NCBI GenBank assembly: GCA_036336885.1
Contig: JAYZFG010000015.1
Location: forward strand, 142,126-206,125
Source: Pseudomonadota bacterium
Lineage (GTDB): Bacteria; Pseudomonadota; Alphaproteobacteria; MPNO01; UBA2964
DNA length: 64,000 bases
Direction: 5' to 3'
The position numbers and the translations under genes were made by a program. Under the pieces are notes generated by a model, which had not been told where the DNA came from, ran no database searches, and worked only from the letters and a program-made list of their open reading frames with translations. Below are positions 3,489-64,000 of the stretch, piece by piece. How positions within the stretch are numbered: position 1 is the first letter of the stretch; every line of letters starts with the position of its first letter.

Positions 3489-3615
3489 TAATTTACTCCG
3501 TTTAAAAACAACCTCATTTTCTATCACCTTTCTAAAAATGCAATACCGACAATTGCTGAATTGAATAAATAGTCCTAATCTGACAATAGAATATCTTTGA
3601 AGGAGAAAAAATCGT

Positions 3616-4290
3616 ATGGATCCCCGTTTTGAACAATTCAAGGACTTGGACTGGGGCTCTATGAGCTACCCAGAAAAGAGAGAGGTTTGGCTCCAGATAT
3701 CCGATATCAGTGCCGAAGACTTTGACACGATGATGGCCGCGCAAAAAGCTCGTCAAGACCAAGTGCCGAAGATCGGCGAATTAGCGCCAGACTTCAAACT
3801 AGAGCGTCTAGACAGAACCAGAAGACGTACCGGAGAGTATGTAAAACTTTCAGACCTGAGAGGAAAGTCGGTAGCGCTATGTTTTGGTTCTTATACCTGA
3901 CCACCCTTTCGTGAACAGTCCGTGAGACTGAACGAAATTTACGAGGCAAATAAAGACAATATTGAATTTTTTCTGGTTTATGTACGTGAGGCACACCCTT
4001 CAGATGGCTGGCAGACACTTCAAAATCTTGAGCCTGAGATCTTTTATAAGGCCCCTAAGACAGCTGACGAACGTGCTGAAATCGGTCATGCCTGCCAGGT
4101 TGGTCTTGATCTCAGATACCCAATGCTCATCGATGGTCTCGATGACGAAACGGAAAAGAATTACGTGGCCGCACCAATCCGATTATTTGTCATCGGCCCG
4201 GATGGCAAAATTACTTATGCCGGGAAGGAAGGCCCACACTTATTTGACCCGGATGGCTGGGAGCAAGCTATCAAAGCACAATCCATATAA
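3616..4290 (+). CDS. Iodothyronine deiodinase-like (thioredoxin-fold) selenoprotein with UGA-encoded Sec95
   Basis: Track ORFs 3616..3900 and 3922..4290 share a frame and are joined through TGA 3898..3900. The read-through gives SVALCFGSYT-U-PPFREQSVRLNEIYEANKDNIEFFLVYVREAHPSDGW. This parallels the vertebrate deiodinase core FGS.TUP.F...(V/I)Y(I/V).EAH.SDGW, and later Y.A.P.RL..I...G.I.Y.G..GP. AAGGAG lies about 8 nt upstream of the ATG. Confidence 0.88.
3908..3936 (+). promoter_or_regulatory. SECIS-like mRNA hairpin 3' of the in-frame UGA of the deiodinase-like gene
   Basis: UUCGU-GAA-CAGUC-[CGUGA]-GACUG-A-ACGAA. Two 5-bp helices are separated by an internal loop. The apical loop contains GU and starts 23 nt after the U of UGA, within the usual bacterial SECIS spacing. 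Confidence 0.6.
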
Positions 4291-4308: not shown

Positions 4309-4340
4309 CCGGTGGGGACCTAGATGACAGCCCCCACCGG
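4309..4340 (+). promoter_or_regulatory. Hairpin sequestering the selA Shine-Dalgarno region, with the selA start codon in its loop
   Basis: CCGGTGGGG (4309..4317) is perfectly complementary to CCCCACCGG (4332..4340): 9 bp, 8 of them G:C. The 14-nt loop carries ATG 4324..4326, the 5' arm contains the SD-like GGTGGGG, and the 3' arm is selA codons 3-6. No U-tract follows, so it is not a canonical terminator. Confidence 0.5.
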
Positions 4341-5748
4341 AAATATCCTCTCACTAATACCCTCAGTAGATAAGCTTTTACGAACGACGGGTGCTAAAAG
4401 CCTCATCAATTCTTTTGGTCGCCAGTCTGTAACCAACATTGTACGTGAAGAACTTGCAACTCTCAGAGCAACTCTTTCGCATAACGGGGGAGAATCAGTC
4501 CGCGAGATCTCTATCCAACAAATTTTGCAAACTGTAGCCGAGCGACTTGAAAAAAATCTTAAACCATCACTGAAATCGGTTTTAAATTTGACCGGGACAG
4601 TGCTCCATACAAACCTGGGACGCGCGCCCCTCCCTAAAGAGGCAATTAAGGCAATGGCCGAGGTGGCCGAAGGTGCCAGCAACCTTGAATACAACCTTGA
4701 TTCGGGGAAGCGAGGAGACCGAGATACGCATCTTGAAGATATATTAATTAATCTCATTGGTTCAGAGGCGGTAACAATTGTTAATAATAATGCTGCGGCT
4801 GTTCTTCTCATTCTAAATTCCCTGGCTCTTCGTAAAGAGGTTCTCGTCTCTCGCGGTGAGTTGATTGAAATAGGTGGTGCTTTTCGTATCCCAGAGATAA
4901 TGAAACGTGCCGGAGTGAAACTTCGAGAAGTGGGAACGACTAACCGGACTCATTATCGTGACTTTGCCGAGTCAATTGATACAAAAACCGCAATGGTGAT
5001 GAAAGTCCACACCAGCAATTATGTGGTACAGGGATTTACTGCAGCTGTCCCAGAGCCAGAGTTGGCAGAAATAGCTCACTCAAATCAGCTGCCATTCGTA
5101 ACAGACCTTGGAAGCGGGACAATGATCAATTTGGAGAAATACGGACTGCCCCACGAACCAACTGTTCAGGAGGCCCTTGCCAACGGAGCTGACCTAGTGA
5201 GTTTCAGTGGTGACAAGTTACTCGGCGGCCCGCAAGCCGGCATAATTGCGGGGCGGGGCGACCTAATAAAGAAAATAAAAAGGAACCCCATGAAAAGGGC
5301 TATGCGGTGCGATAAAATGACTATTGCGGCCCTTACAACAATTTTACACCTATATTCCGATCCCGACAGCGTCGCTACGCGCATACCCGTTCTAAGATTG
5401 CTAACCCGGACACCAGAGGAGATTTTTAAAACCGCGGAGAGGCTGAACCCGATTATAAACAAAAGCCTGGGTGAAGATTTTTTAAGCGATATTCAACCAT
5501 GCAAGAGTCAGATCGGTAGTGGAGCCATGCCAACTGAAAGGCTAGAAAGTTTCGCCCTGGTAATAAAACCACACAAATCCAAATCGACAGGCACTATTTT
5601 AGCACGTCTGGCCTCTTCATTTCGTAAATTACCTGTGCCGGTGATTGGGCGCATCCAAGATAATGCCTTATGGTTGGATTTACGTTGTCTGGAAGCCAAT
5701 CATGAAAAATCTTTCATCAACCAAATAAAAACACTGTCAATAAATTGA
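4324..5748 (+). CDS. selA: L-seryl-tRNA(Sec) selenium transferase
   Basis: 474 aa. N-terminal LIPSVDKLL, the PLP-lysine region [16 protein letters not shown] and the overall length are typical of SelA. It is followed by selB and tRNA-Sec. Confidence 0.93.
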
Positions 5749-7658
5749 TCATTGCAACATCTGGACATATCGACCACGGCAAAACAATACTGGTAAAAGC
5801 ACTAACGGGTATCGATACGGATCGGCTTCCTGAAGAAAAAACTCGAGGTATTTCCATCGACCTAGGCTACGCATATCGCGAACTGGATCATGATAAAATT
5901 CTTGGTTTTGTCGATGTACCGGGTCACGAAAAATTTGTCCGGAATATGCTGGCGGGTGTTACTGGTATTGATTATGCCTTGCTAGTGATCGCCGCCGATG
6001 ATGGCCCTATGCCGCAAACGGAGGAACACCTCGCAATTCTTGACCTGCTTGGCGTTTCAGGAGGTGCTGTTGCGATAACCAAAATTGATCGTGTTGAGGC
6101 TAGTCGGTTAGAGGAAGTTATTACACTCACTGAGATTCTGCTTGATGATACCAGCCTTAGTGGGGCACCAATTTTTCCTGTCTCGGGCATCACCGGAGTT
6201 GGGGTCACTGAGTTATGGTCCCATTTGAAAACCCTAGCTTCTAATTTTACAAGCAGCCGGCGTGGCGGAAATTTTAGGCTCGCTATTGATCGGTGTTTTA
6301 CGGTACCTGGCGCCGGGTTGGTTGTTACAGGCAGTGTTTTTTCAGGTGATGTAAAAATCGGAGAGCGATTAACTCTATCACCAGCAGGCATACAGGTCAG
6401 GGTGCGGGGTATTCATGCCCAGAACCGAAATGCGGAAAGTGGAGAGGTGGGCCAGCGCTGTGCGATTAACATTACCGGGCCGGATATACAGAAAGGTCAG
6501 ATACATCGCGGCGATTGGTTATTAGATGAGGCAGTTCACGCCCCTACACGACGTTTTGACGCGCGTATTCGGTTACTTAAATCCGAGGCACGGCCTTTAA
6601 AACATTGGAGCCCCGTTCACCTGCATACAGGAACCGCTGACATCAGCGCGCGAGTAGCCTTACTTGATGGAAAATCTATTCTGCCCGGGGATACTGGGCG
6701 TGTACAGTTAGTCCTTGATGAATCTATTGGGGTTTTACATGGAGACCGCTTGATCCTTCGTGATCAATCGGCACGCCGGACTATAGCTGGTGGTGATGTT
6801 ATAGACCCCTTTGCTCCTGCGCGGGGCCGTTCTAGACCGGAGCGGCTAGCCGCCGTCTCTGCGATGGAAATTAAAGAACCTCAAGAAGCTTTAACATCTC
6901 TAATTCTAGCGGAACCGAACGGTACCAATTTATCGAATTTTTCTATCAGTCGAAATCTAACAGCTGACGATGCGGCCGCCGTCTGGTCCAATACCGATAT
7001 AGTTATTTCACACCAGGATAAACAAAAATTAGGGTTTTCTGAAAATCGTTGGGACGTTTTGTGCAAGAGTATTTTGATGGGACTAGAACAATGGCACAGG
7101 GAAAAGCCGGATCAGCTTGGACTTGCAGCGAACAATCTCAGGCTAAGCCTAAACCCTAGACCGCCTTTACCATTCTATAATGCCGCAATCGGATATTTAG
7201 CAACGAGCGGCAAGATCTTGCTTGCTAACCGGCAACTGCGCCTTCCCGGCCACCAAACCAGCATCAGTGCACAAGACAAAAAACTATGGGCCGAGGTCCG
7301 GCAAACTATGGAAAATGCCGGGCTAAGACCTTTATCACTAAATGAAGTTGCTGATGAAATGGACATCAAGGCAAATACATTGATTGCCTTTATGCGTCGT
7401 GCCGCTAAATCAGGCTTCGTCATTCAAATATCCAAAAATCGGTTTTTATTGCCAGAGGCAATAAATGAACTCGCCGAAATTGCAGAAATACTCGGCAAGG
7501 ATGGCAAAATAACAGCGGGTGACTTTCGCGATCGGTCTGTAATTGGGCGAAATATGGCTATAGAAGTGTTGGAGTTCTTCGATAAGGCGGGATTGACTAA
7601 ACGCACCGGCAATTCGCGGGAAATTGTCAAACCTGCAATAGAAGTTTTTGGAAGATAG
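5745..7658 (+). CDS. selB: Selenocysteine-specific translation elongation factor
   Basis: 637 aa. (M)[13 protein letters not shown]...[19 protein letters not shown]...DVPGHEKF closely parallels the E. coli SelB N-terminus, and the long C-terminal extension is consistent with the SECIS-binding winged-helix domains. The TTG start overlaps the selA stop (TTGA). Confidence 0.93.
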
Positions 7659-7700
7659 GATTTACGTGGCGTCATAAAGATTTTAAATATTAGAAATTGC

Positions 7701-7796
7701 GGAAGGGATTCGTGAGCCGGTGCTGCGCTCGGGCTTCAAACCCGTTGAGGGGCGTTAAACGTGCCTGGTGGGTTCAACTCCCACTCTCTTCCGCCA
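7701..7796 (+). tRNA. selC: tRNA-Sec (anticodon UCA)
   Basis: 96 nt. It has an 8-bp acceptor stem (GGAAGGGA / UCUCUUCC with one G:U), an anticodon loop CUUCAAA presenting UCA, and a long variable arm (about GAGGGGCG-UUAAA-CGUGCCUG). The T arm is GUGGG-UUCAACU-CCCAC, followed by discriminator G and an encoded CCA. It lies 42 nt downstream of selB on the same strand. Confidence 0.9.
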
Positions 7797-49366: not shown

Positions 49367-49371
49367 TAGCG

Positions 49372-52102: not shown

Positions 52103-52215
52103 TTACTTATTCCATTCTTTATATAGTTAGATAATCATAGCGAAGCTTGTTGCCGCGGAAAACTTTAAAGGGCAAACAAGGAATTTTATGGAACCAATTT
52201 ACAGGGGATCTGCTT

Positions 52216-52583: not shown

Positions 52584-53969
52584 TTAAAGTTTTATCCCTG
52601 CAGAACTTATAATTTCTTGTACTCGACGGCGTTGCTCATCGGAAATAACCAGCCTCTCTGCAAAGTCACGACCAGTGGGCTTAGTCGCGTCTATGCCAAC
52701 TTTTGTTACTGTATGGTTTTTCGGGTCAGATGTTGGATCAAGGATTGCGCCCATTGCCCCATGTATATAGGTGACATCTTGATCGGCACGAGTGCGAGTA
52801 ATCACTGCCCACATGACATCTGAAAGGTCAAATATATCTACATCCTCGTCCACAACGATTACTGATTTTACATAAAACTCTGTCCCGAGGGCAGCCATGA
52901 TTGCTTGCTTTGGCTGCCCTTCAGCAGTCTTCTTCATCTGAATGATCGCCATCAAAGCACCAACAGTACAAAGGGGAACATGAACAGAACTTACATTGGG
53001 TAAGTTGCGTCGTAAGGCATTTAAAATTTCTGCCTCGCGACTGATAGAAGAAACGAGTATATGATCGCCAGCAGTGCCAGAAGCTACACTGTGGAAAATT
53101 GCATCACTACGCATTTGAATTCGCTTGGCCACAAACACATTTTCTGTAGAGCGGTAGGAAGCATAGCCAGTAAACTCACCAAACGGCCCTTCTGGTTCAT
53201 GTGTATCTGCTAGAATTTCACCTTCTATGACTATTTCGGCTCCAAATGGTATGAACAAATCATTCGTCCTGCAGGTCGCAACCTTATAGGGTTCGCCAAA
53301 CAATGCGCCAATAATTTCGTATTTTCTGACATTTGGCGGATAATGGTAAGCCATCGACCCCATATAATGTATAGGATGTATTCCAATCGTAATGGCCGCC
53401 GGAAGAGATTCACCTTTTGCCTCCGCCCGACGATGAAATTCATACATCCTTCTGCGGGAATGCAATGACAAGCCGAGGCGGTCTTTACCTTTTAACATTA
53501 ACCTATGAAACCCTACTGTATCAGTTTCACCATCAGGGTCACGTGCCGTAATTTGCCCTGCAGTGATATACGGCGCCGCGTCAACATCAAAGTGCAGCGG
53601 GATAGGCAATCGGGTCAGATCAACATCGTCACCCTCTAGCACCATATCCTGCCATGGTGCGTCCCCTACCACTTCAACGGGCTGGTAATTTTGACATCTT
53701 TCTCGATAGGCCAATGGCAAATCATCCGGTTTCACACCAACTGCAGCTGCTAATAAACGCCGGTTGCCTGCTGTGTTTGTGACAACTTGATTATTGAAAC
53801 CCTCAACATTTTCAAAAAGCAAAACAGGGCTTTTTCCATGGCGCTCAAATTCAAAAACAGATGACGTAATATCTAGTTCCTGACGGACTGGTTCTGAAAC
53901 ACGAACAAAATCTTCGGGAAACTCTGTTTCCACCATATCTAGAAAACCACGCAAACTTTGATCGGTCAT
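52584..53969 (-). CDS. UbiD-family (prenyl-FMN-dependent) decarboxylase
   Basis: 461 aa. N-terminal LRGFLDMVE…VLLFENVEGF…NRRLLAAAVG pattern and overall length. No UbiX-like gene is in the window. Confidence 0.8.
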   Translation of the reverse strand: MTDQSLRGFLDMVETEFPEDFVRVSEPVRQELDITSSVFEFERHGKSPVLLFENVEGFNNQVVTNTAGNRRLLAAAVGVKPDDLPLAYRERCQNYQPVEVVGDAPWQDMVLEGDDVDLTRLPIPLHFDVDAAPYITAGQITARDPDGETDTVGFHRLMLKGKDRLGLSLHSRRRMYEFHRRAEAKGESLPAAITIGIHPIHYMGSMAYHYPPNVRKYEIIGALFGEPYKVATCRTNDLFIPFGAEIVIEGEILADTHEPEGPFGEFTGYASYRSTENVFVAKRIQMRSDAIFHSVASGTAGDHILVSSISREAEILNALRRNLPNVSSVHVPLCTVGALMAIIQMKKTAEGQPKQAIMAALGTEFYVKSVIVVDEDVDIFDLSDVMWAVITRTRADQDVTYIHGAMGAILDPTSDPKNHTVTKVGIDATKPTGRDFAERLVISDEQRRRVQEIISSAGIKL

Positions 53970-54059: not shown

Positions 54060-55256
54060 TTAATTTAGTAACCCCGAAGCCTCTAAAAACGGTTCAATAG
54101 GTGGGCGATAGATTCCGGCACCCAAACCACCATAAACACCATTCTTATCCGCAATTCCCAACTCAAGAATTGGTGTCAAACGGTTCTCCACAATAGCCCG
54201 CACGGATAACCCAACCCTTGCGCAACTCTTTGGCATTCCAGGATGCGTAACCATGAGTAATTTTTCCGGTAGAGTAAAGATATCGTCCGGCGTGAACCCC
54301 TTATGAAGTTCCTGCATGTCGGGACAAAAACTTTGAGCCATGGCACCTAACCCTAGTCCCTCCGTTATAGCGCTGTCGCCAAATGCACCAACACAAGTCT
54401 CAACTGTATGTGGATCACGAATTTTACCTAATGGCGGAGCAGCAGCACAGGTAAACCACCTACCGGGAAATGCCGCAATTTGAAACCCAAATGCATTACC
54501 GTTACCCCCAAATGCTGTAATGATTCCGCTTCCATCGGTACCCACAGCAGAAGATACAATTAGTTTGGACGCTGCCATCCAAAAGTTCAGGTGAAAGAAG
54601 GGCCACTTTTTGATAAACGCATATACCCCCGACTCGGAGAACTCATCACCGAGACAATCCAGTATTATAGACGTTAAAATTTTGTGCGATTCCAGGTGAC
54701 GTAAGTGGCCATCATCGCCTTGAATTAATGCCTCATCAATAATAGGCAACCATTCGACGGGTCTCATAACAGGCACATTTACTATTGCCTCACCCACTTC
54801 ATGATTTAGGTATTTTAGGAAATCGATAGCATCCTGGTTTTTATAACCATAACGCGGCACAGGGTCAGCACCAGTTCCACCTCCATTTAGGGGCGCCCAG
54901 GTACGATGATCCGTATTATTCAGGTCACAAAACTCTGTCAGCTTCATTGAGGATGAAACTACTGCGGCCATCGGAGTGACAACGTTAAGATCCTGAGCTG
55001 CCTGAAAATTTATTTCACCGGCATCTATCATCTCATCGGCTTCCTCAAGTGTAGCCGCCCAACCTTCAAAAACACAGGCGACTGCCGCTGAATTTAAAAT
55101 TGGTTTTACAAGATTATTGATCGAGTTAGCAGGTGGGCCACAGTGAAGTAAAGTCCGATCAACTAGACCAAATGCCTCTTTTGCGGTGGCAACACGTTGC
55201 CAAGCAGGAACTACCGATACCATCTTTTCAATAGCTAAATTATCTGCTGAATTCAT
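54060..55256 (-). CDS. Divergent DUF1116-family protein, paralog of 41395..42645
   Basis: 398 aa. …LLHCGPPANSINNLVKPILNSAAVACVFEGWAATLEEADEMIDAGEINF…VVTPM… aligns by eye with …ILHAGPPISWDRMCGPMQGAIAGITVFEGWAKNLKEAAKLAAEGVITF…AVGPM… of the AllG-like protein. Confidence 0.65.
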   Translation of the reverse strand: MNSADNLAIEKMVSVVPAWQRVATAKEAFGLVDRTLLHCGPPANSINNLVKPILNSAAVACVFEGWAATLEEADEMIDAGEINFQAAQDLNVVTPMAAVVSSSMKLTEFCDLNNTDHRTWAPLNGGGTGADPVPRYGYKNQDAIDFLKYLNHEVGEAIVNVPVMRPVEWLPIIDEALIQGDDGHLRHLESHKILTSIILDCLGDEFSESGVYAFIKKWPFFHLNFWMAASKLIVSSAVGTDGSGIITAFGGNGNAFGFQIAAFPGRWFTCAAAPPLGKIRDPHTVETCVGAFGDSAITEGLGLGAMAQSFCPDMQELHKGFTPDDIFTLPEKLLMVTHPGMPKSCARVGLSVRAIVENRLTPILELGIADKNGVYGGLGAGIYRPPIEPFLEASGLLN

Positions 55257-57604
55257 AGCCCACCCCGTGCTTTCTGAATAAGGCCATACAGTCTGGCCGG
55301 ATCTATTGGCAACCGATCAACAACTAAACCTATATCCTTAAAAGAATCATTAATAGCATTTACAATTGCAGCTGGCGGGCCAATTGCCCCACCCTCACCC
55401 AGCCCTTTCTGCCCAAAGTAAGAAAATGGCGAGGGAGTTTCCATGTGCTCAATTCTAACTTGGGGCATCTCACAGGCACTTGGCAAAAGATATTCAGCCA
55501 AGGTATTGGCCATTGGCTGCCCTGATTCGTCGTATGGCATTTCCTCAAATAATGCCGTACCTACCCCCTGTGCGGCCCCACCAAAAACTTGCCCGTCAAC
55601 CACCATCGGATTAATCATTAACCCTCCATCTTCAACAATAACATAATCAAGAATTTCGACCGCACCAACTTCTGGGTCCACCGCAACAACGCACGCATGG
55701 ACGGCATAAGAAAAAGTACCGCTATCCGGTTCAGGTCGGTAACCCTGGGTAAGTTCTAAAGCATCTGATGCCAATTCTGGGGACAAATCCTGCGGAGCCC
55801 TATACCAGGTCCAGGCAATATCCCTAATCGAGATTGCTCCAGCAGCGGAGTGAACTGCGCCAGCTGAAAGGGAGACGTCTTTAACGCTTGCCTGCAAAAG
55901 ATGTGCCCCTAATCTCAAAACACGATTGGCCAAGACCTTGCAAGCCTCCGCCACCGCACCACCCGCCATCACCGCACAACGGGATCCCCAAGTTCCTGTT
56001 GAGTAGGGCGTAAGAGAGGTATCTCCGTGTATAATTTTTATATCATCTGTATTGATCGTTAAAACTTCCGATGCAACCTGCGCCAGAGTTGTCTCGAGAC
56101 TTTGGCCATGTGATTGAACGCCCACTCTCACCTCCAATCCCCCATCGGGAGTGATCCGTGTAGTGGCCTGTTCAAACCCGGGTACCATTGGGATACCCCA
56201 ACCGGAATATACGGAGGTCCCGTGCGCCGCTTGTTCACAAAAAATAGAAAAGCCGACACCAATCCGTTTACCGTTATCTTCAATTTTGTCCTGTCGATTC
56301 CTTACCGCTGGAAGATCGATCGCTTCGGCTGCCCTTTTTATGCAATCAGGGTAATCACCAGAATCAAACAATTTATTTGTAACATTATTGAAAGGCATTT
56401 GACTTGGAGCCGGTACATTTCTAATTCGCATCTCGTGTGGTTCAATGCCGAGCTCGCGTGCTAAAGGATCGATCAACGTTTCTAGAGCAAAACAGACACC
56501 CGTTCGGGCCACGCCGCGATATGGCAGGATTGGTGGCTTGTTAGTTGCAGATGACCAAGTCCTGCAGCGAAAACCACTAAAATCATATGGACCCGGTAAA
56601 ATACTCGCAATTTGCGCCGCCTCAAGGCAGGCAGAAAAAGGGTAGGCTGAATATGCACCAGCATCCACGGTAGCCTCGCATTCAACCGCGAGGAGTTTTC
56701 CATCTGACGAGGCGTAAGCGGTTATTTCATAATAGTGCTCCCGACAGTTAGTATTGGCACTCAGCTGTTCCCGACGATCTTCTATCCAACAAACGGGTTT
56801 ATCGATTTGCATAGCGATCCAAGATAGAGCGACCTCTTCTGCTAGGAGAATCCCCTTGTATCCAAAGCCACCGCCGACATCAGGAGCGATTACCCGAACT
56901 TTTCCTTCATCGAGACCCAGACAATTGGCAAGTCCAGTCCTAACGATATGAGGCATTTGCGTGGAACTAGTGAGTGTCAGAAGTTCAAGTCGACGATCCC
57001 ACTCTGCAACAACACCACGGCCTTCTATAGGTGCCATTGACTGTCGCGCCGTTCTAAAACTACGCGTAACAGAAGCTGCTGCTTGACTTTTAAGTGCCTC
57101 TAAATTTCCATCCGCTTCAATAAAAGTTTCAAGAAAAATATTATCGCTCCAATGCTCATGAATTAATGGGGAGCCGTTATTTTTTGCCTCTAGCATATCA
57201 GAAACTACTGGCAGGTGTTCTATCTCCAATTCTACGCGATTAACTAAATCTTCTGCCTCACCACGCGTATTAGCTACACAAGCGGCAACCAACTCTCCCA
57301 CATAGCGCACTTTTTCGCTGGCAAAAATTGGTTGGAGGGAAGACTTAAACCCCTTCAGACCAGAGTCCGCCTGGATTGGAGAAACGCCAACCAGATCTTT
57401 TGCATCAAAAACATTATTTTCCTGCCCAACGGGCTTAGTAACACGAACATTTTTACCATGAGCAATAGGACTTCGAACAAATGCAACCTCCCGCATTCCA
57501 AACCGCTTGATATCTGCAACGAATTCGCCTCGCCCTCTTAAATAGCGTTCATCTTCTTTCCGAATTACCGACTTGCCGATGCCGCCATTCAAAATTGGTT
57601 TCAT
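55253..57604 (-). CDS. Xanthine dehydrogenase/aldehyde oxidase/CoxL-family molybdopterin-binding large subunit
   Basis: About 783 aa from ATG 57604 (MKPILNGGIGKSVIRKEDERYLRGRGEFVAD…). …VRSPIAHGK…, …GGGFGYKG…, …PYRGVARTG… and C-terminal …GQKGLGEGG… are present. The stop overlaps the DUF1116 paralog start (ATGA). No FeS domain. Confidence 0.85.
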   Translation of the reverse strand: MKPILNGGIGKSVIRKEDERYLRGRGEFVADIKRFGMREVAFVRSPIAHGKNVRVTKPVGQENNVFDAKDLVGVSPIQADSGLKGFKSSLQPIFASEKVRYVGELVAACVANTRGEAEDLVNRVELEIEHLPVVSDMLEAKNNGSPLIHEHWSDNIFLETFIEADGNLEALKSQAAASVTRSFRTARQSMAPIEGRGVVAEWDRRLELLTLTSSTQMPHIVRTGLANCLGLDEGKVRVIAPDVGGGFGYKGILLAEEVALSWIAMQIDKPVCWIEDRREQLSANTNCREHYYEITAYASSDGKLLAVECEATVDAGAYSAYPFSACLEAAQIASILPGPYDFSGFRCRTWSSATNKPPILPYRGVARTGVCFALETLIDPLARELGIEPHEMRIRNVPAPSQMPFNNVTNKLFDSGDYPDCIKRAAEAIDLPAVRNRQDKIEDNGKRIGVGFSIFCEQAAHGTSVYSGWGIPMVPGFEQATTRITPDGGLEVRVGVQSHGQSLETTLAQVASEVLTINTDDIKIIHGDTSLTPYSTGTWGSRCAVMAGGAVAEACKVLANRVLRLGAHLLQASVKDVSLSAGAVHSAAGAISIRDIAWTWYRAPQDLSPELASDALELTQGYRPEPDSGTFSYAVHACVVAVDPEVGAVEILDYVIVEDGGLMINPMVVDGQVFGGAAQGVGTALFEEMPYDESGQPMANTLAEYLLPSACEMPQVRIEHMETPSPFSYFGQKGLGEGGAIGPPAAIVNAINDSFKDIGLVVDRLPIDPARLYGLIQKARGGL

Positions 57605-57715
57605 GGGACCCCTAAATTTTTTATCGCTGTTGATCAGTAGAGCTCTCGGGTTCATTATCAGCATACAAGAACTCTTTGTCATCATCGATAAACGAAACAC
57701 TGTTTGGGAGCTAAC

Positions 57716-58966
57716 ATGGAAAAGAAATTTGATACCATAATTTCCGGCGGTCGAGTTATAGACCCGGCAAACAAATTAGATGGAAAACTTGATGTAGGAA
57801 TAAAAGACAATAAAATTTCAGCTGTTGAAAAAAAATTAAAAGATAAAAATGCTGAAATGATAGATGCAACGGGTAAGCTGGTTATCCCCGGGATGATTGA
57901 CACCCATGCACACGTTTTTGAACATGTAAGTGGTAGGTTTGGCCTAAATCCAGATCTCGTCGGAGTACGCTCCGGAGTGACAACCGTAATTGATCAAGGT
58001 GGACCGAGCTGCATGACTTTTCCCGGCTTTCGCAACTTCATCTCCGATCCGGCAAAGACAAACGTATTAGCATTTATTTCAATTTATACAGTAGGGGGGT
58101 TAGAGGGACATTACTATCCATACCTATATGGCCCGGGGGGAATTGATGTTGAAGCCTGCGCTAAGGCAGCGGGAGCGAATAAAGATATAGTCAAGGGCAT
58201 CAAAGCCCATGCAGAACCCGGTGGTATTTCACGTTGGGGTTTGGAAACTCTGAAAATGGCAAAAGACGCGTCTCGCGAAGCCGACATTCCTGTATACATT
58301 CACCTGGGAGAGCTTTGGCCAACAGAGGGAGGCATCGACGTCGATATGGATGCTCGACTGCCCGAGATCGTCGCGCTTATTGAGGAAGGCGACATTCTCG
58401 CGCATCCGTTTACAAGGCACCCCGGAGGTTTTGTTAACAAAGAGGGTAAATTACACCCCATCGTTAACGAAGCTATCGACAAGGGAGTTCTTATCGATAT
58501 TGGCCACGGTTCGCATTTTAGCTTCGATATGGCCCGTGCGGTCCTTGATGCAAACGTATTACCGACAACTGTTGGTGCTGACATGCATGGGTATAATACT
58601 CATGTGCCGGCAGAGGCAGGTACTCCTGATGAGCATCCAGACGACGAGATGCATCTTTTTGCGGGTCAGGCGCGCTTTAGTATGTGTCACGCTATGACGG
58701 AGCTTATAGCCATGGGTGTCAGCATGGAAGACACGATACCTATGGTCTCAACCCATTGTGCAGAGATGATCGGTATGGAAGATGAACTTGGAACTCTCGG
58801 TATTGGTCGTATAGCAGACATATCGGTACTTCACGACGAAACCGGTGAATGGGTATTGCAAGATAATAGCGATGTTGAATTAAAGACAACCAGAAGGTTG
58901 CGTCCAGCATTCTGCCTTCGCCAAGGCGAGTATTTCGATGCTGACGCACCTATACTCCCGGTTTGA
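57716..58966 (+). CDS. Amidohydrolase-superfamily metallohydrolase (dihydroorotase/deacetylase-like)
   Basis: About 416 aa from ATG 57716 (MEKKFDTIISGGRVIDP…GIKDNKISAV…IPGMIDTHAHVF), with HxH metal ligands and downstream His/Asp ligands. A 9-nt gap separates it from the next gene. Confidence 0.75.
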   Translation: MEKKFDTIISGGRVIDPANKLDGKLDVGIKDNKISAVEKKLKDKNAEMIDATGKLVIPGMIDTHAHVFEHVSGRFGLNPDLVGVRSGVTTVIDQGGPSCMTFPGFRNFISDPAKTNVLAFISIYTVGGLEGHYYPYLYGPGGIDVEACAKAAGANKDIVKGIKAHAEPGGISRWGLETLKMAKDASREADIPVYIHLGELWPTEGGIDVDMDARLPEIVALIEEGDILAHPFTRHPGGFVNKEGKLHPIVNEAIDKGVLIDIGHGSHFSFDMARAVLDANVLPTTVGADMHGYNTHVPAEAGTPDEHPDDEMHLFAGQARFSMCHAMTELIAMGVSMEDTIPMVSTHCAEMIGMEDELGTLGIGRIADISVLHDETGEWVLQDNSDVELKTTRRLRPAFCLRQGEYFDADAPILPV

Positions 58967-58975
58967 GAAAATCGT

Positions 58976-59938
58976 TTGAAAATAAGTCTTGTAACCCCAG
59001 CAGGAAAAAAATCCCGTACGGGTAATAGGACTACCGCTGTCCGCTGGGCCCGAATTCTCCGTAACCTTGGTCATCGGGTGGCCATTGCGGAACAAGATGA
59101 CGGAGCAGAAGCCGATATTATGGTGGCGGTTCATGCTTGGAGATCTTATCATTCGATAAAATCATTCTCGGTCAGTCACCCAAACCGACCTTTAGTGGTT
59201 TTATTGGCTGGTACAGATATTTATAGCTTTCAACATACGCATCCCAACGAAACGCTAGATTCGATGAACCGCGCAACCGCACTAGTGTGCCTGCATAGAC
59301 TGGTTGAGCGGGAAATACCGCAGAAATATGTCAAAAAACTGAACGTTATTTATCAATCGGCAAAGCCTCTTCTTTCACCTTCAAACCCAAACAAAAAGAC
59401 CTTTGATATTTGTGTCATTGGTCACTTAAGGGATGAAAAAGATCCACTTCGTGCAGCCTATGCATCGCGTTTAGCTCCACGAGATTCAAAAATCCGGATC
59501 ATCCACTTAGGTAAAGCTCATAACCAAAAATGGCTCAATTCCATGAGGGCAGAGGAGGACGCAAATCCACGCTTTATTTCGCTTGGAGATGTTCCAGCTT
59601 GGCGTGTACGCCGTCAATTTTCTACAAGCCGTGCTATGGTTATAAGCTCTATAATGGAGGGGGGAGCAAATGTTGTTTCCGAAGCAGTCGTTGCTGGCCT
59701 ACCAATAATCGCCTCAGAAATAGACGGAAATATTGGACTACTAGGCCCGGATTATAAAGGTTATTATCCAGCAAAAGACACAAAAGCTCTCGCGAGCCTA
59801 TTAAACAAGTTGGAAGAGGAACCAGGGTTTCTAAGACATCTGGCTGGGCAAATAAAAAAGAGACAGAATTTGTTCAGACCCTCACGGGAACATCAAGCGT
59901 GGGACCATCTAATCAATCACCTTAGACCTTCACTGTAA
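58976..59938 (+). CDS. GT-B glycosyltransferase resembling the SenB selenosugar-synthase family
   Basis: 320 aa with a TTG start. The N-terminus KISLVTPAGKKSRTGNRTTAVRWARILRNLGHRV matches my recollection of the SenB-family N-terminal signature (…TP…S..GN..TA.RWA..LR.LGH.V). The C-terminal GT1-type motif EGGANVVSEAVVAGLPIIAS is present. Its 3' end overlaps the selD fusion gene. Family membership needs an HMM check. Confidence 0.6.
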   Translation: MKISLVTPAGKKSRTGNRTTAVRWARILRNLGHRVAIAEQDDGAEADIMVAVHAWRSYHSIKSFSVSHPNRPLVVLLAGTDIYSFQHTHPNETLDSMNRATALVCLHRLVEREIPQKYVKKLNVIYQSAKPLLSPSNPNKKTFDICVIGHLRDEKDPLRAAYASRLAPRDSKIRIIHLGKAHNQKWLNSMRAEEDANPRFISLGDVPAWRVRRQFSTSRAMVISSIMEGGANVVSEAVVAGLPIIASEIDGNIGLLGPDYKGYYPAKDTKALASLLNKLEEEPGFLRHLAGQIKKRQNLFRPSREHQAWDHLINHLRPSL

Positions 59939-62189
59939 TAGGCTCGAGCCTTTCTGATTGTTCTAAAACCTCGCCGATAATCATGGCACGAGCATACCCT
60001 AATTCTTTTAAAGCCACTACACATGCATCGGCTTTATCTGCTGGAACACTAGCAAGAAGACCGCCCGCTGTCTGAGGATCAAATATCAGGGGATAACGTG
60101 GATCTGTTCCAGCCTCCTCTATATTGGCTACGGCCCTACGCAACCTGACATTCTGCGGTTGAAGAGAAGACACGATACCTGCTTTTACCGTATCTATTGC
60201 GCCGTCCATCACAGGTATAGCATCCAGTTCAATAATAACATCAACTGCCGATGCGCGAACCATCTCAACTAAGTGCCCCAACAAACCAAAACCCGTGATA
60301 TCAGTTGCAGCCTGGGACCCATGATCGATAAGACATTGCGCACCTTTATAATTGGACATAACCATGTGATCGAGCGCCGCTCCTATCCACCGACCTTTTG
60401 CCTTGTGCCGCATGTCCGCCGCGAAGAGTGTTCCAGTCCCTATTGGTTTGGTAATAAGCAACTTATCTCCGGCCTGCATCCCACCCTTGCGCATAATTTT
60501 GTCTTTATCGATAAGCCCGTTAATTGCGAACCCAAGGCTTAGCTCGGGACCTTCACTTGTGTGACCACCAACCAAAGAACAATTTGTATCATTCAAAATT
60601 TCCATCGCTCCCATCATCATTTGGGTCAAGGTATCTTCTACTTTTTCTTCTATACCAAAGGGGACGGTTGCCACAGCCAATGCGGTTTGCGGCTCGCCAC
60701 CCATTGCAAAGATATCGCCCAAGCTATGATTAGCGGAGATTTTACCAAATACATAGGGGTCATCGACCATGGACCGAAAATAATCAACTGTATGTACCAT
60801 TACTTTACCTGGCGGCACCTCGATTACTGCGGCATCATCCGGCTCGTGCAATCCAATCAATACGTCTTGCCGTGGCACCGGTTCTAAGCTTCCTAAAGCA
60901 CGCGACAATACAGTCGCGCCAACCTTGGCCCCACAACCCCCACAGCGCATAGCAATAGCAGAGATCTCCTTTACCAATTCTGTACTTGCTAATCCTTCAG
61001 GGAGATCCGTTTCAGAACCTTCCTCCATATCTGGTAATTCATTAAACTTCTTCATAAACTGGAGGTCGATCCAGTTCTTCCACTTCCAAACTTTAGGCCC
61101 CCGGAGTGTGAAATTGCCCCGAGACGCTACGGCGTATTTATCCCCAGTCGAAATCAAACTAAGGAAGTGCCTCTGTGGATGAAACCGTTTTGGGACCCTT
61201 CCGAGCAAGACCCTCCTCAAATTACGCTCGAGTGGTTTTCCCTGTCTTACCGCAAATACACCTGACTTTGGACGAGGATGATTAACCATCGAAGCAATAT
61301 CCCCGGCTGCGAAGACGTCAGGGTGTGACGTAGATTGGAGTGTATCACCCACGGTAATAAATCCATTTTCATCGACGTCCAATCCGGCATCTGTTGGCCA
61401 ACTCGGCGCAGCAGCAGCCGTAACCCATAATATTTCATCCGCCTCAATTTTTTTTCCAGACTGAGTTTCTACAACGCCTGGAAACACCTTAACGATTTCA
61501 TCACTTGCATGGACGAAAACCTCGCGCTCTTGCAAAACCTTTTTAAAATGAGCGCGCACCCAAGCATTATGGCTTGGCATAATTTCGGTAGAGCTGCTGA
61601 ATAGATGGTAAGAAATTTTATCAACTTTGTTGCCCTCTTTCTCCAATAGTTGCTGCAAACGAAATTGAATTGCGAGAAGAACTTCAACACCTCCTGCCCC
61701 TGCTCCAACGACAGCGATGGTCAATGCACCATTGTGGTGTATGACGCGATCTATTAGTGAATCCCAACGATCCAGAAACAAATTGATGGGCTTAACAGGC
61801 ACAACGTTTTCCGTTGCCCCAGAAACGAGGGATGTATTTGGTGTTGACCCAGTATTAATAGAAATGAGGTTATATAGAACAGGTGGTCTATTATCGCATA
61901 AGACCTTCTTCCCTGTCATATCTAATCCTGTAACGGTGCTATGATAGAAACGAGCCCCTGCAAATCTCGCTAAAGCGCCGAGATCTATGTGCGCCTCGTC
62001 ATAAGTATAATGGCCAGCAACATACCCCGGTAACATTCCGGAGTAAGGTGTGTGTGCGTCACGGCAAATCAACGTTAATCTAACACCTGGTAACGGCTTC
62101 ATTCCAAATCTTTTCAGCACAGCAACATGGCTATGGCCCCCGCCAATTAAAACCAGGTCCTTTACAGTGGGAGTTTCAGATTTTTGCAT
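59922..62189 (-). CDS. selD: Fusion protein: FAD/NAD(P)-dependent pyridine-nucleotide-disulfide oxidoreductase domain + selenide,water dikinase (Cys-type SelD)
   Basis: 755 aa. Residues about 1-370 carry two Rossmann motifs (VLIGGGHSHV, AVVGAGAGGVE) and …FAAGDIA…. Residues about 400-755 are SelD (…MRCGGCGAKVG… with Cys and Lys at the E. coli Cys17/Lys20 positions, plus AIR-synthase-like domains). There is no in-frame TGA. Confidence 0.88.
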   Translation of the reverse strand: MQKSETPTVKDLVLIGGGHSHVAVLKRFGMKPLPGVRLTLICRDAHTPYSGMLPGYVAGHYTYDEAHIDLGALARFAGARFYHSTVTGLDMTGKKVLCDNRPPVLYNLISINTGSTPNTSLVSGATENVVPVKPINLFLDRWDSLIDRVIHHNGALTIAVVGAGAGGVEVLLAIQFRLQQLLEKEGNKVDKISYHLFSSSTEIMPSHNAWVRAHFKKVLQEREVFVHASDEIVKVFPGVVETQSGKKIEADEILWVTAAAAPSWPTDAGLDVDENGFITVGDTLQSTSHPDVFAAGDIASMVNHPRPKSGVFAVRQGKPLERNLRRVLLGRVPKRFHPQRHFLSLISTGDKYAVASRGNFTLRGPKVWKWKNWIDLQFMKKFNELPDMEEGSETDLPEGLASTELVKEISAIAMRCGGCGAKVGATVLSRALGSLEPVPRQDVLIGLHEPDDAAVIEVPPGKVMVHTVDYFRSMVDDPYVFGKISANHSLGDIFAMGGEPQTALAVATVPFGIEEKVEDTLTQMMMGAMEILNDTNCSLVGGHTSEGPELSLGFAINGLIDKDKIMRKGGMQAGDKLLITKPIGTGTLFAADMRHKAKGRWIGAALDHMVMSNYKGAQCLIDHGSQAATDITGFGLLGHLVEMVRASAVDVIIELDAIPVMDGAIDTVKAGIVSSLQPQNVRLRRAVANIEEAGTDPRYPLIFDPQTAGGLLASVPADKADACVVALKELGYARAMIIGEVLEQSERLEPITVKV

Positions 62190-62205
62190 AACCTTTTCTG
62201 TCGAA

Positions 62206-63681
62206 TTAATGTTGCTTCAAACTCGTTTGCAGCCGTAATCGGCTTCGAATAGACCTCGAAATGACATCGATACAAATATTTAGCAAGGCAGTAATAGCAA
62301 TTAGAAATATGGCCCGGTCAAACCGTAGGTCAGCAAAAGCACTGTCAACATAGAAACCTAGCGTCGCTATTCCAAGTATACCTAGAATAGCAGTCTCTCG
62401 CATAATGACTTCCCAACGATAGAACAAAAGGGCAAGCATTGGACTGTAAACACGTGGTAATACCTCGTAAATATAACGATTAAAGCCTTTTACTGCATCT
62501 AACCGGAGTTGAACCGTTTCAGTATAGCGACCAATCAAGTGGCCTATAATCGCACCATTATGAAGCGTCAGAGCCACAATTGCAGGTAACATCGATGGCC
62601 CCCAAAGCTGAAGAAGAATAAAAGCTAGAATATATTCAGGCGTGGACCGCGCTATGACGAGAAATATATGGCCAAAAAAGCGTGAGAATTTTCCTAGTAA
62701 TAACGGCGATATAAGTGGAAAAAGTATAATGGTCAAAAACCCGGTTGCAACTAAAGCGATCATGGTCAGTTGTAACGTCGCAATTGTGCCCGGTATCGCT
62801 TGGTCAACAACCATCAGGTGAAGCCAATCCGACAAACCCTCAAAACTACCACCACTTCTTATCGGATAAGGTATTATATCCTCTGTCAAAAATCGCACGA
62901 TATTGGAAAAGGAAAACTGAACTCCCCACGGCAAAATAATAATAGCGCCTATGATATAGATTGGCAGCAACGGTCGTTTAATCCAGAAACGCATGGTGGC
63001 AATCACAAGGTAGAAAAGAAATAATAATGCAGCGACCTCTGAATACTGACCCTCTTTAAATGCCGTTTCCAAGTGAAACCCCAGCGTCGGCAAACCAATG
63101 AAACCGAGAACTGCACTTGATCGGATTCCACATTCTAATCGGTACATTGCATAAGATCGAAAATGGGCCCACACATCGGGCAATTGCACAAAAATAAAAG
63201 CAGAAAGACGGCTCGTTCCAAAGGGTATTGATTTGAGTGGAGCAGGGTTTGCTTCTTCCAGAATCTCTGCGTAAACCTTGGCAATGATGCCTGCATAGGG
63301 AATAGCAATCGCCAGGACACCTGTCAGTGGCGACAACCCAAACATTTGTAAAAAAATAAGCGCCCAAAATAATTCATGTACTGCACGAATAACAGCGCAC
63401 AGTGTTCGAATAATCCGGCTAAAGAAAAGTAACGCTAAGAACAAACCCATCAGATTTGCTAGAGTTACACCAAGAAATGCAAAAGCCAGTGTATAGGCTA
63501 TGGCTTGTATAACACTATCAGTAGCATAAAAGTCTGGGCTAACAAGTCCGGCTAGAAGGCGTCCGAACTCATCCCAAGGATCAACCGTAGTGATTGCAAC
63601 GTCAGAGAATACCAGGCAAATAAAGCCGATCCCGACAAAAATTTTAGTTGTTTTTGCTAGTGGTGATGGCTCCGACCGCAA
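62206..63681 (-). CDS. ABC transporter permease with two tandem PhnE-like domains
   Basis: 491 aa, about 12 TM helices arranged as two repeated halves that each end in …LG(F/I)(I/L)G(L/I)(P/A)TLGF(H/Y)… . A 16-nt gap separates it from selD and a 2-nt gap from the ATPase gene. Confidence 0.7.
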   Translation of the reverse strand: MRSEPSPLAKTTKIFVGIGFICLVFSDVAITTVDPWDEFGRLLAGLVSPDFYATDSVIQAIAYTLAFAFLGVTLANLMGLFLALLFFSRIIRTLCAVIRAVHELFWALIFLQMFGLSPLTGVLAIAIPYAGIIAKVYAEILEEANPAPLKSIPFGTSRLSAFIFVQLPDVWAHFRSYAMYRLECGIRSSAVLGFIGLPTLGFHLETAFKEGQYSEVAALLFLFYLVIATMRFWIKRPLLPIYIIGAIIILPWGVQFSFSNIVRFLTEDIIPYPIRSGGSFEGLSDWLHLMVVDQAIPGTIATLQLTMIALVATGFLTIILFPLISPLLLGKFSRFFGHIFLVIARSTPEYILAFILLQLWGPSMLPAIVALTLHNGAIIGHLIGRYTETVQLRLDAVKGFNRYIYEVLPRVYSPMLALLFYRWEVIMRETAILGILGIATLGFYVDSAFADLRFDRAIFLIAITALLNICIDVISRSIRSRLRLQTSLKQH

Positions 63682-63683
63682 GG

Positions 63684-64000
63684 TTATTCATCCTTATTGC
63701 GATACAAATGATCAAGATCACTTGGCTTCATTCCGCTGGCATCCTCGTCAAGGACCAGCAATCCATCCCTAATTCCTATTAACCTGTCAGAAAATTCGAT
63801 GGCCAGTTCTCGATCATGCATGGCTAATACAACGGTTGGCTTATTTGAGGTTATAGAATTGAGAATTTCCCGTGCCTGATGTTCATCTACGGCAGAAACA
63901 GGCTCGTCAGCAATTAAAATTTCGCCGGTATGAAAAAGGGCACGGCCTACGGCGGTTCTCTGTTGTTGGCCACCAGATAATTCGCCCACGCTACTGTGAA
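63684..64000 (-). CDS. ABC transporter ATP-binding protein (PhnC-like), C-terminal part only; the gene continues past the right edge
   Basis: …LSGGQQQRTAVGRALFHTGEILIADEPVSAVD… gives the ABC signature and Walker B. The reading frame stays open to position 64000. Confidence 0.8.
   Translation of the reverse strand, partial: HSSVGELSGGQQQRTAVGRALFHTGEILIADEPVSAVDEHQAREILNSITSNKPTVVLAMHDRELAIEFSDRLIGIRDGLLVLDEDASGMKPSDLDHLYRNKDE

Follow-up and report, generated by a model that had tools for sequence, protein, structure and literature searches.

The selenium genes at the end of the window (the whole 64-kb stretch of DNA that was analysed) form an already known cassette whose position is unusual; a new selenium pathway is not demonstrated. 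Two modules lie back to back here; we consider it moderately probable that a rearrangement joined them and that the selenosugar is used by a SenA/OvsA-type enzyme whose gene lies elsewhere in the genome, as it does in Marinobacter. The selenium module comprises the following genes:

58976..59938, plus strand: senB, 320 aa, TTG start; predicted selenosugar synthase, a GT-B Se-glycosyltransferase
59922..62189, minus strand: fusion protein, 755 aa; FAD/NAD(P) oxidoreductase (Ndh-like, TIGR03169) and Cys-type SelD; predicted senC equivalent
62206..63681, minus strand: duplicated PhnE-type ABC permease, 491 aa, with two BPD_transp_1 stretches; putative selenate importer
63684..64000, minus strand: 3' part of a PhnC-type ABC ATPase gene (ORF 63684-63989) that continues past the window edge

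The open reading frames and distances are as given in the sequence-only reading: 2 nt between the PhnC and PhnE genes, 16 nt between PhnE and the fusion gene, 9 nt between the amidohydrolase gene (see below) and senB, and a convergent 17-nt overlap of the 3' ends of the fusion gene and senB. The glycosyltransferase (N-terminus MKISLVTPAGKKSRTGNRTTAVRWARILRNLGHRV), for which that reading had suggested membership in the SenB family and proposed a model search, scored 388.9 bits against the curated SenB model TIGR04348 (cut-off 300). The crystallised SenB of V. paradoxus aligns with it over the full length (E = 8e-44), and the equivalents of all catalytic residues of that enzyme (PMC10891094), N20, T23, H58, R61, T85, D86, R155, K158, E231 and E239, are kept. 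Judged by these matches, the window protein is a genuine member of the SenB family. The senB ORF is unbroken in all eight SenB-linked loci, its dN/dS is 0.135 (window versus L007), and the divergence of SenB relative to SelD is 2.58 in the window clade and 2.65 in SenA-linked lineages. Because the catalytic residues are retained, dN/dS is low and the relative rate resembles that of SenA-linked lineages, senB is predicted to be functional and under purifying selection, without relaxation.

The 755-aa protein, as proposed, fuses a reductase to a Cys-type SelD: it contains the Pfam domains Pyr_redox_2, AIRS and AIRS_C, passes both TIGR03169 (501.5 bits, cut-off 310) and the selD model TIGR00476 (295.4 bits, cut-off 125), and carries the Cys-type SelD active site RCGGCGAK with a CxxC motif. 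The permease narrowly missed the cut-off of the PhnE model TIGR01097 (216.3 versus 216.7 bits) and is kept alongside the cassette in 39 loci. In the overlapping contig L001, the whole 221-aa PhnC-type ATPase is followed, beyond the window edge, by a 292-aa binding protein. With 379.9 bits it exceeds the cut-off (250) of TIGR04553, the model for putative selenate ABC substrate-binding proteins, which agrees with the earlier assignment of the ABC system to the putative selenate importer type.

The window also encodes predicted selenocysteine machinery:

about 3488-3003, minus strand: candidate selenoprotein gene with an in-frame TGA, peroxiredoxin-like GHW-U-PYC
3616-4290, plus strand: candidate selenoprotein gene with an in-frame TGA, deiodinase/thioredoxin-like FGSYT-U-PPF
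4324..7796, plus strand: selA (Pfam SelA, 527 bits), selB (SelB domains) and tRNA-Sec (ARAGORN tRNA-SeC, 7701-7796)

The two candidate selenoprotein genes diverge from each other and span 3003..4290. The selA/selB/tRNA-Sec system, 50 kb away, very probably draws on the SelD of the fusion as well; since the organism decodes selenocysteine, selenium import and SelD have a second client besides SenB.

Fusions of Ndh and SelD have been known since 2008 and account for about 40% of marine Cys-type SelDs (PMC2398784). The window fusion shares their domain order and CxxC active-site motif, with no difference detected; the marine fusions presumably provide selenophosphate for general purposes (Zhang and Gladyshev 2008, PMC2398784). 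Convergent fusion selD and senB genes, whether or not PhnCDE accompany them, were found in 53 of the examined loci, including those of Vreelandella utahensis and Marinobacter. Fusion and importer are usual on this SenB branch, published ovoselenol producers included, and are not distinctive. The overall interpretation of the sequence-only reading thus stands for SenB, the Cys-type SelD fusion and the importer. It does not stand for the distinctiveness of the cassette, for the selenium genes as a SenB-only set, given that selenocysteine is decoded too, or for the amidohydrolase as the partner of the cassette. The last point emerges from the second module:

52584..53969, minus strand: UbiD-family decarboxylase, in the same catabolic module as the next two genes
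54060..55256, minus strand: AllG-like (PF06545) paralogue, overlapping the Mo-hydroxylase gene by 4 nt
55253..57604, minus strand: Mo-hydroxylase large (molybdopterin-binding) subunit (MoL), CoxL/quinoline-oxidoreductase-like, divergent from the amidohydrolase gene
57716..58966, plus strand: amidohydrolase/deacetylase-family metallohydrolase of the PRK09237 type, upstream of senB

The amidohydrolase ORF covers 57704-58966 on the plus strand, with a likely start at M5 (57716) that agrees with 416-aa homologues; if MoL starts at M33 (57604), in agreement with 783-aa orthologues, the spacer between the two genes is 111 nt, as previously given. The protein passes NF006689 (399.5 bits, cut-off 371), a family whose name includes 'deacetylase', and its HxH metal motif aligns with that of solved relatives of the PRK09237/EF_0837/Atu3266 type (PDB 8JE0, 2OGJ, 8WZY, 2ICS), for none of which a selenosugar or GlcNAc is known as substrate. 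The NagA model gave only 41.7 bits against a cut-off of 225.65. What sets the window enzyme apart from these relatives is its place in a catabolic module with Mo-hydroxylase and UbiD (elsewhere LigB). MoL contains Ald_Xan_dh_C, MoCoBD_1 and MoCoBD_2 domains, and its closest solved relative is the large subunit of quinoline 2-oxidoreductase (E = 2.4e-145); compared with all NCBIfam equivalogs, including models of Se-dependent XDH, it reached no cut-off.

The AllG-like/MoL pair is kept in L004-L009, L087, L088 and L094, and UbiD is 84-93% identical in L004, L087, L088 and L094, whether senB is present or not. Amidohydrolase orthologues of 71-77% identity keep divergent MoL, AllG-like and UbiD partners where senB was not seen. 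In L088, amidohydrolase (71% identical), UbiD (84%), AllG-like protein (59%) and MoL (73%) are all represented, with neither senB nor selD within 13 kb. MoL is likewise divergent in L091, L092 and L094 (amidohydrolase 74-77% identical), where LigB lies 10 nt downstream, and AllHFG are downstream in L095 (71%); no senB or selD was seen at these four loci either. The LigB dioxygenase of several senB-less relatives occupies the slot held here by senB. A more distant homologue (L090, 60% identical) is part of an amidohydrolase-MoL-CoxM-CoxS operon with a full three-subunit Mo-hydroxylase. Because orthologues are paired with Mo-hydroxylase, AllG-like protein and UbiD where senB and selD were unseen, the amidohydrolase, on this comparative evidence, is evolutionarily part of the divergent Mo-hydroxylase module and is not the cassette's own partner, as had been supposed. 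The amidohydrolase-senB pairing is kept in eight loci, and the amidohydrolase module is also found where senB was not seen.

As the sequence-only reading noted, the 64-kb window contains no gene for an NHISS (DinB_2 plus FGE-sulfatase), that is, an enzyme of the EgtB/SenA/OvsA type. Neither Pfam domain occurs among the substantial window ORFs scanned, and the best genuine tblastn match of 50 NHISS cores to the window has E = 0.018; a lower E-value (1e-4) was rejected as a 26-residue antisense match inside senB, derived from an over-extended ORF call. Nor was an NHISS found within 10 kb on either side in eight related loci, so that the window and these loci together cover -58 kb to +10 kb around senB. 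Among the 120 closest relatives of the L010 SenA (at least 61% identical), none lies on the long contigs of the clade (4,149,033, 827,729, 113,421 and 93,555 bp), whereas SenA matches pair, by the length of their contigs, with more distant SenB matches; this search would overlook OvsA- or EgtB-type enzymes that have diverged.

Two known systems frame this absence. In the ovoselenol (ovs) system of Marinobacter, ovsA and ovsM are located elsewhere on the chromosome from the cluster of senB, fusion selD and PhnCDE (PMC11030361), which shares with the window the importer, SenB and the convergent FAD-oxidoreductase::SelD with its CGGCGAK motif; NHISS genes are likewise absent within 10 kb on either side in the Marinobacter loci L064, L072, L075, L078, L079, L084 and L086. 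However, the SenB of Marinobacter is only 47-53% identical to that of the window, its importer is upstream of and divergent from senB, whereas the window senB follows a catabolic amidohydrolase gene, and its partner ovsA has been reported, whereas that of the window was not located. The senABC selenoneine clusters of Variovorax paradoxus and of marine alphaproteobacterial loci (L010, L012, L015 and others) share the SenB family with its catalytic residues and the linkage to selD and a selenate importer. The loci of the nearest relatives of the window SenB (66% identity) encode a SenA above the NF041186 cut-off, and egtD is present at several loci of this SenB branch; by contrast, the window and the clade loci lack both senA and egtD, and the window SelD is an Ndh fusion, not a stand-alone SenC.

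In the scenario that we favour, the first module is the standard marine selenosugar cassette of PhnCDE-like importer, Ndh-like::SelD fusion and SenB. The importer would take up selenate or selenite, the Ndh-like flavoprotein domain may reduce the imported selenium, the Cys-type SelD would make selenophosphate, and SenB would move selenium from it onto a UDP-sugar, yielding a 1-seleno-sugar. The second module would be an N-heterocycle or aromatic catabolic unit (MoL, AllG-like protein, UbiD and the divergently transcribed amidohydrolase) at the border of a purine/urate/allantoin island. An ancestral rearrangement, possibly one deletion, would have put senB directly behind the amidohydrolase gene, in the LigB slot, and taken the usual divergent senA away from the 5' side of senB. 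In eight SenB-linked loci, among them the divergent L093, the two genes point the same way and lie 8-32 nt apart; no separate promoter or terminator was predicted in this gap, which leaves little space for one, and senB is probably now transcribed from the amidohydrolase promoter. The amidohydrolase would work in the catabolic pathway and not on the selenosugar, which would most likely be consumed by a remote SenA/OvsA-type enzyme. Against this scenario counts that no SenA or OvsA was located for the lineage in the searches made. Moreover, if a deletion running from LigB to senA created the junction, the lineage may no longer have a senA.

Loss of SenA from the lineage, with the selenosugar or its diselenide as a redox-active or selenium-storing end product, or as substrate of an acceptor that is neither an NHISS nor connected with the catabolic genes nearby, is an unlikely alternative. 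It would account for the negative searches and for senB long retained under normal constraint, and L028 and L036, which have only NHISS fragments beside an intact senB, suggest that in other lineages, too, SenA may decay while SenB is kept; every characterised SenB, however, feeds an NHISS, Marinobacter shows a remote partner to be normal, and the 120 best matches would not include a divergent enzyme. That senB is itself a decaying remnant, as the absence of an adjacent senA might suggest, is highly improbable given its intact ORF in all eight loci, its retained catalytic residues, its dN/dS and its unaccelerated rate relative to SelD.

We regard as improbable a dedicated tailoring role of the amidohydrolase, for instance as a de-N-acetylase, in converting the SenB product into a new selenosugar-derived metabolite. 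The conserved short gap, the monophyly of the SenB-linked amidohydrolases and the 'deacetylase' in the family name would fit such a role, but the orthologues in the same module with LigB, UbiD or AllHFG downstream, the homologue sharing an operon with a full Mo-hydroxylase and the NagA score argue against it, as does the restriction of this amidohydrolase to the window clade's seven among 80 reference-genome SenB loci. [quoted passage not shown] A selD beside a purine-island Mo-hydroxylase, with genes for a purine-catabolic amidohydrolase, carbamate kinase and M20 peptidase close by, resembles SDMH neighbourhoods (Haft and Self 2008, PMC2276186; C. difficile, PMC11448449); the MoL linkage is kept in at least eight loci, and other Mo-hydroxylase genes occur near sen clusters in L030, L031, L034 and L035. 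Yet these MoLs are only 27-30% identical, the marker genes yqeB and yqeC, as well as any XdhC-type gene, are absent among the window ORFs scanned, and the CoxL/Qor-like window hydroxylase fails the Se-dependent XDH/hydroxylase models (197 versus 830 bits and 190 versus 1102). Moreover, orthologous MoL modules occur where nearby sen genes were unseen, a role in cofactor maturation is not known for any SenB, and, with two MoL genes in 64 kb, a Mo-hydroxylase near senB is unsurprising by itself. In contrast to SDMH neighbourhoods, selD is already explained here, since the organism uses both selenocysteine and SenB.

The SenB clade of the window is a terminal one that branches from within SenA-linked SenBs; the SenA of its sister L010 passes NF041186 (481 bits, cut-off 420). 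The amidohydrolase-senB-MoL arrangement has been inherited in at least eight lineages, and the amidohydrolase-senB adjacency is old and maintained, since it is also present in L093, whose amidohydrolase and SenB are just 76% and 64% identical, respectively. The amidohydrolases linked to SenB group together as a separate clade (91.5% bootstrap), which is also expected under functional coupling. Cassette genes place L093 at conflicting positions, so that it may represent a second independent juxtaposition. The old adjacency, this clade and the conflicting positions were all counted against the scenario of two rearranged modules with a remote partner. V157 of the V. paradoxus SenB is Glu in the window protein, as in 63 of the 84 branch sequences.

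An ORF check recovered every feature that the sequence-only reading had claimed for the selenosugar locus, at the following positions:

57704-58966, plus strand: amidohydrolase ORF, likely start at 57716
58976-59938, plus strand: senB (TIGR04348)
59922-62189, minus strand: fusion gene, 755 aa, FAD oxidoreductase (TIGR03169) and SelD (TIGR00476)
62206-63681, minus strand: PhnE-type double permease, 491 aa
63684-63989, minus strand: 3' part of the ABC ATPase gene, with the rest of the operon visible on the contig L001

The spacings were also as claimed (gaps of 9, 16 and 2 nt, and a convergent overlap of 17 nt), and the 111-nt spacer to the divergent Mo-hydroxylase gene is correct if that gene begins at the Met matching 783-aa orthologues. 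On L001, which overlaps the window and encodes a permease and a fusion protein with 98-100% amino acid identity to those of the window, the operon runs on with a full ATPase and a binding protein (TIGR04553, 379.9 bits against 250). TIGR04553 is the family of the 'putative selenate ABC transporter substrate-binding protein', the substrate specificity being putative for all such importers.

Judged by its sequence, the glycosyltransferase, previously described as SenB-like, belongs unambiguously to the SenB family and is predicted to be a bona fide selenosugar synthase. The HMM check gave 388.9 bits for TIGR04348 (cut-off 300), with GT4 models far below (runner-up 108.8 bits, cut-off 400), and residues 4-318 align to the SenB of V. 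paradoxus (8JJQ/8FBX; E ~1e-43, 35-36% identity). The equivalents of the residues important by mutagenesis or structure, N20, T23, H58, R61, T85, D86, R155, K158, E231 and E239 (PMC10891094), are all retained. K158, N20/T23/E231, E239, the SeP-pocket residues H58/R61/T85/R155 and the EGGAxV motif are kept both here and in the SenB of L093, a more divergent locus of the same arrangement. The motif reads EGGANV in the window protein and likewise in 83 of the 84 branch members; the V157 position is occupied by Glu, as in 63 of the 84.

The reductase::SelD fusion of the Cys type was borne out as well: TIGR03169 matches residues 11-382 (501.5 bits against 310) and is followed at residues 414-719 by SelD (TIGR00476, 295.4 bits against 125) with the active-site loop CGGCGAK, and on the 'fusion_not_SelD' model the protein scores 473, below the required 700. 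In a single SenB-alignment scan of GTDB species representatives, which yielded 80 loci of 93-47% identity, 53 of the loci examined have a fusion of this kind convergent with senB, and 39 have a PhnE-type permease with it. The fusion-bearing loci include Vreelandella (Halomonas) utahensis and Marinobacter, which are published ovoselenol producers (PMC11030361). Reductase::SelD fusions were described in 2008, always with CxxC, as making up some 40% of the Cys-type SelDs of ocean metagenomes (PMC2398784); according to the selenoneine preprint, a putative selenate transporter adjoins many sen clusters. Thus, the import, reduction and phosphorylation part is the norm for this SenB branch. By its gene content, the locus is a genuine senB/selD/importer cassette of an already described type.

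The cassette varies among loci. In L027, L037 and L070, a TIGR03169-type oxidoreductase lies beside senB without a SelD domain match (the L037 gene reaches the contig end), and in L028, L030, L031 and L034, selD is absent within 10 kb despite the presence of senB and the importer; therefore, the fusion has been split or lost repeatedly. Sizeable ORFs lacking Pfam and NCBIfam matches are found at 29866-31212 and 31329-32621 of the window (minus strand; 448 and 430 aa), and at L001 117-527, L004 10997-11896 and L005 10924-11811; among the unmatched ORFs are variable inserts of 295-299 aa between senB and selD in L004, L005 and L006.

A second client of SelD is encoded in the same window. Positions 3003-7796 hold a complete selenocysteine island, with two divergent selenoprotein candidates followed by selA, selB and tRNA-Sec:

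about 3488-3003, minus strand: candidate selenoprotein, peroxiredoxin-like, in-frame TGA at 3356-3354 (GHW-U-PYC)
3616-4290, plus strand: candidate selenoprotein, deiodinase/thioredoxin-like, in-frame TGA at 3898-3900 (FGSYT-U-PPF)
4324-5748: selA, selenocysteine machinery
5745-7658: selB, selenocysteine machinery
7701-7796: tRNA-Sec, selenocysteine machinery

SelD and the importer are therefore needed regardless of SenB.

The absence of an EgtB/OvoA-like gene from the 64 kb was upheld. Searched with 50 SenA/OvsA-type proteins from related loci, the window gave no genuine tblastn match for an enzyme of the SenA/OvsA/EgtB type (NHISS; best E = 0.018), and Pfam scans of its substantial ORFs detected no DinB_2, FGE-sulfatase or EgtD. 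Nor was an NHISS present within ±10 kb of senB in the window's own SenB clade (L004-L009, L014) or in L093, and neither the ovsA NHISS nor the ovsM methyltransferase occurs in the window or in the clade loci. Matches at 58933-59469 (minus strand) were rejected as an artefact of over-extended ORF calls, in which divergent senA genes run antisense into senB; with trimmed NHISS cores they vanish, except for one 26-residue antisense match of the same origin. In L013, L062 and L076, which do have an NHISS, the cluster 'c13' found upstream of senB was dismissed as a spurious antisense ORF rich in Arg and Ala.

Among the 80 loci, senB lacks an adjoining NHISS in three sets: Marinobacter, with ovsA reported at another chromosomal site (PMC11030361); two contig-edge loci; and the window clade. 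L093, outside this set, also lacks one and has the same arrangement as the window clade. In the SenB tree, the window clade is terminal and nested within SenA-linked SenBs, and its sister L010 encodes a SenA (NF041186, 481 bits against 420), so the SenA-less state is derived. A remote search with the L010 SenA as query covered the best 120 relatives, all at least 61% identical, a range outside which more divergent enzymes of the OvsA or EgtB type would fall. The long contigs of the clade (4,149,033, 827,729, 113,421 and 93,555 bp) carry none of these 120, many of which sit on contigs of the same size as those with SenB matches of 66% identity or less. This suggests that the long contigs of the clade may carry no close SenA. 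Beside an intact senB, L028 (about 9578-9880) and L036 (about 9706-9933) have no more than short stretches of an NHISS, with 113 and 76 aligned residues, which may represent independent decay of senA with senB retained.

The amidohydrolase belongs to the NF006689 family (PRK09237 amidohydrolase/deacetylase-family metallohydrolase; 399.5 bits against 371), and its DTHAHV aligns with DFHGHV of 8JE0, the metal-binding HxH motif. The protein is far from NagA, with TIGR00221 matching an N-terminal stretch only (41.7 bits against 225.65). No literature was found on this arrangement, on the UbiD/Mo/amidohydrolase/extradiol module or on PDB 8JE0. Homologues sampled down the identity gradient have the following neighbourhoods (percentages are identities to the window proteins):

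L088: amidohydrolase 71%; divergent layout as in the window, with UbiD 84%, AllG-like 59%, Mo-hydroxylase 73%; second UbiD downstream
L091, L092, L094: amidohydrolase 74-77%; same divergent Mo-hydroxylase; LigB class III extradiol dioxygenase 10 nt downstream
L091 2463-3464, L092 2214-3215, L094 9259-10215: LigB-type dioxygenase
L095: amidohydrolase 71%; AllH-AllF-AllG downstream
L090: amidohydrolase 60%; operon amidohydrolase-MoL-CoxM-CoxS/CoxG (MoL, Mo-hydroxylase large subunit)
L089: amidohydrolase 64%; amidase, hydantoinase and peptide-ABC context

Neither senB nor selD was detected within 13 kb in L088, and LigB in L091, L092 and L094 occupies the exact slot of the window senB. The stable partner of the amidohydrolase is the Mo-hydroxylase, and the gene behind the amidohydrolase varies. 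Neither the window nor any SenB-linked locus has a LigB homologue; the ring-cleavage step of the catabolic module may therefore be missing here or encoded elsewhere. A purine/urate/allantoin island in the left flank (41395-52569) encodes a carbamate kinase together with AllG-, AllF- and AllH-like proteins (oxamate branch), gamma-glutamyltranspeptidase, phosphoribosyltransferase, class V aminotransferase, membrane PuuD-type urate oxidase, OHCU decarboxylase, HIU hydrolase and PuuE allantoinase (538 bits against 425), which fits a catabolic role of the amidohydrolase.

The sequence-only reading was thus confirmed as an observation, and its interpretation was supported only in part. The amidohydrolase-senB pair is indeed kept in eight lineages, but the amidohydrolase stays with the Mo-hydroxylase in loci where no sen genes are seen. 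The proposed pathway, running from import through reduction, phosphorylation and glycosylation to deacetylation, drew on an adjacency that, in the light of the comparative data, is probably better explained as an inherited juxtaposition than as a shared selenosugar pathway. An ancestral rearrangement would have placed the sen cassette directly behind the 3' end of a catabolic amidohydrolase gene, parting it from its senA. The comparison shows that most special-looking features are either standard for marine SenB cassettes (fusion, importer) or borrowed from the catabolic operon (the amidohydrolase link). As the case illustrates, genes that remain closely adjacent (9 nt, eight lineages) may owe this to the inherited fusion of two modules and not to a shared pathway.

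L093 has the order amidohydrolase-8 nt-senB-convergent fusion selD-ABC, although its amidohydrolase is just 76% and its SenB 64% identical to those of the window, so the arrangement is old. Less probably, the two genes came together a second time and independently in L093, in which case functional coupling of the amidohydrolase and senB would be the more plausible. The trees conflict. In the concatenated cassette tree, L093 falls outside a 99%-supported group of SenA-linked lineages and the window clade, and SelD is incompatible with L093 as sister of the window clade (0 of 300 replicates). In the amidohydrolase tree, L093 groups with the window clade to the exclusion of the LigB-linked orthologues (91.5% bootstrap), and the SenB and PhnE trees are compatible with the sister position. 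The junction spacers of L093 and the window clade cannot be aligned. In the SenA-linked L024, PhnE (13234-14706) is 87% identical to the window PhnE and nests in the clade (87.7% bootstrap with the window), but SenB is only 57% identical, a mismatch that points to recombination or transfer between sen cassettes. The conflict is best explained by one fusion event, after which homologous cassettes recombined with one another.

senB in the window clade is under purifying selection, with no relaxation. In the comparison of the window with L007, senB has a dN/dS of 0.135, compared with 0.093 for the amidohydrolase, 0.067 for MoL, 0.069 for SelD and 0.133 for the AllG-like gene, and the divergence of SenB relative to SelD is 2.58 across the clade against 2.65 in SenA-linked lineages. 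By this dN/dS, the unaccelerated divergence and catalytic residues that are intact even in L093, senB is still functional, and its interpretation as a relic was rejected on the dN/dS and divergence data. A sigma-70/terminator scan of 57.4-60.3 kb predicted no promoter or terminator in the amidohydrolase-senB gap, and the counts were within about two standard deviations of those in shuffles.

To our knowledge, bacterial selenosugars have only two fates, selenoneine and ovoselenol. An unlikely reading for this marine alphaproteobacterial lineage is that the rearrangement deleted senA for good. SenB would nevertheless have stayed under full purifying selection, co-transcribed with an amidohydrolase of heterocycle catabolism and next to the associated Mo-hydroxylase, and the selenosugar would have a third, NHISS-independent fate (processing by the amidohydrolase or selenium donation to the Mo-hydroxylase). 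A SenB lineage truly without SenA/OvsA would imply a third selenometabolite or a new route of selenium delivery. If these genomes encode no NHISS at all, the selenosugar would have such a third fate.

That the sen cassette is the selenium source for the Mo-hydroxylase, so that Se would enter a Mo-centre aerobically and without YqeB/YqeC for the first time, has a low probability. The two lie side by side, but the Mo-hydroxylase, which is CoxL/quinoline-oxidoreductase-like, scores far below the Se-dependent XDH/hydroxylase models (TIGR03311, 197.1 against 830; TIGR03313, 190.2 against 1102), no yqeB, yqeC or xdhC-type gene was found among the substantial window ORFs, and orthologous Mo-hydroxylase modules occur without sen genes seen nearby. 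Proximity to senB alone carries little weight because MoL genes are dense here, a second one being located at 18256-20565.

For the MoL of the 54060-57604 pair, the whole 64 kb contains neither a CoxM (FAD) nor a CoxS (2Fe-2S) gene. It overlaps an AllG-like (PF06545) paralogue by 4 nt, and the pair is kept in about ten loci (L004-L009, L087, L088, L094); the 63% identical MoL of L090 has ordinary CoxM and CoxS-CoxG partners. At 17264-20565, an Amidohydro_2 (ACMSD-type) gene comes immediately after the second lone MoL (769 aa), with no small or medium subunit genes nearby. In L030, L031 and L034 (Rhodospirillaceae/Rhodospirillales MAGs), another MoL (29-30% identical), UbiD (32-33%) and an acyl-CoA ligase adjoin senA-senB, upstream of senA, which could be chance in genomes with many genes of these kinds or a recurring neighbourhood.
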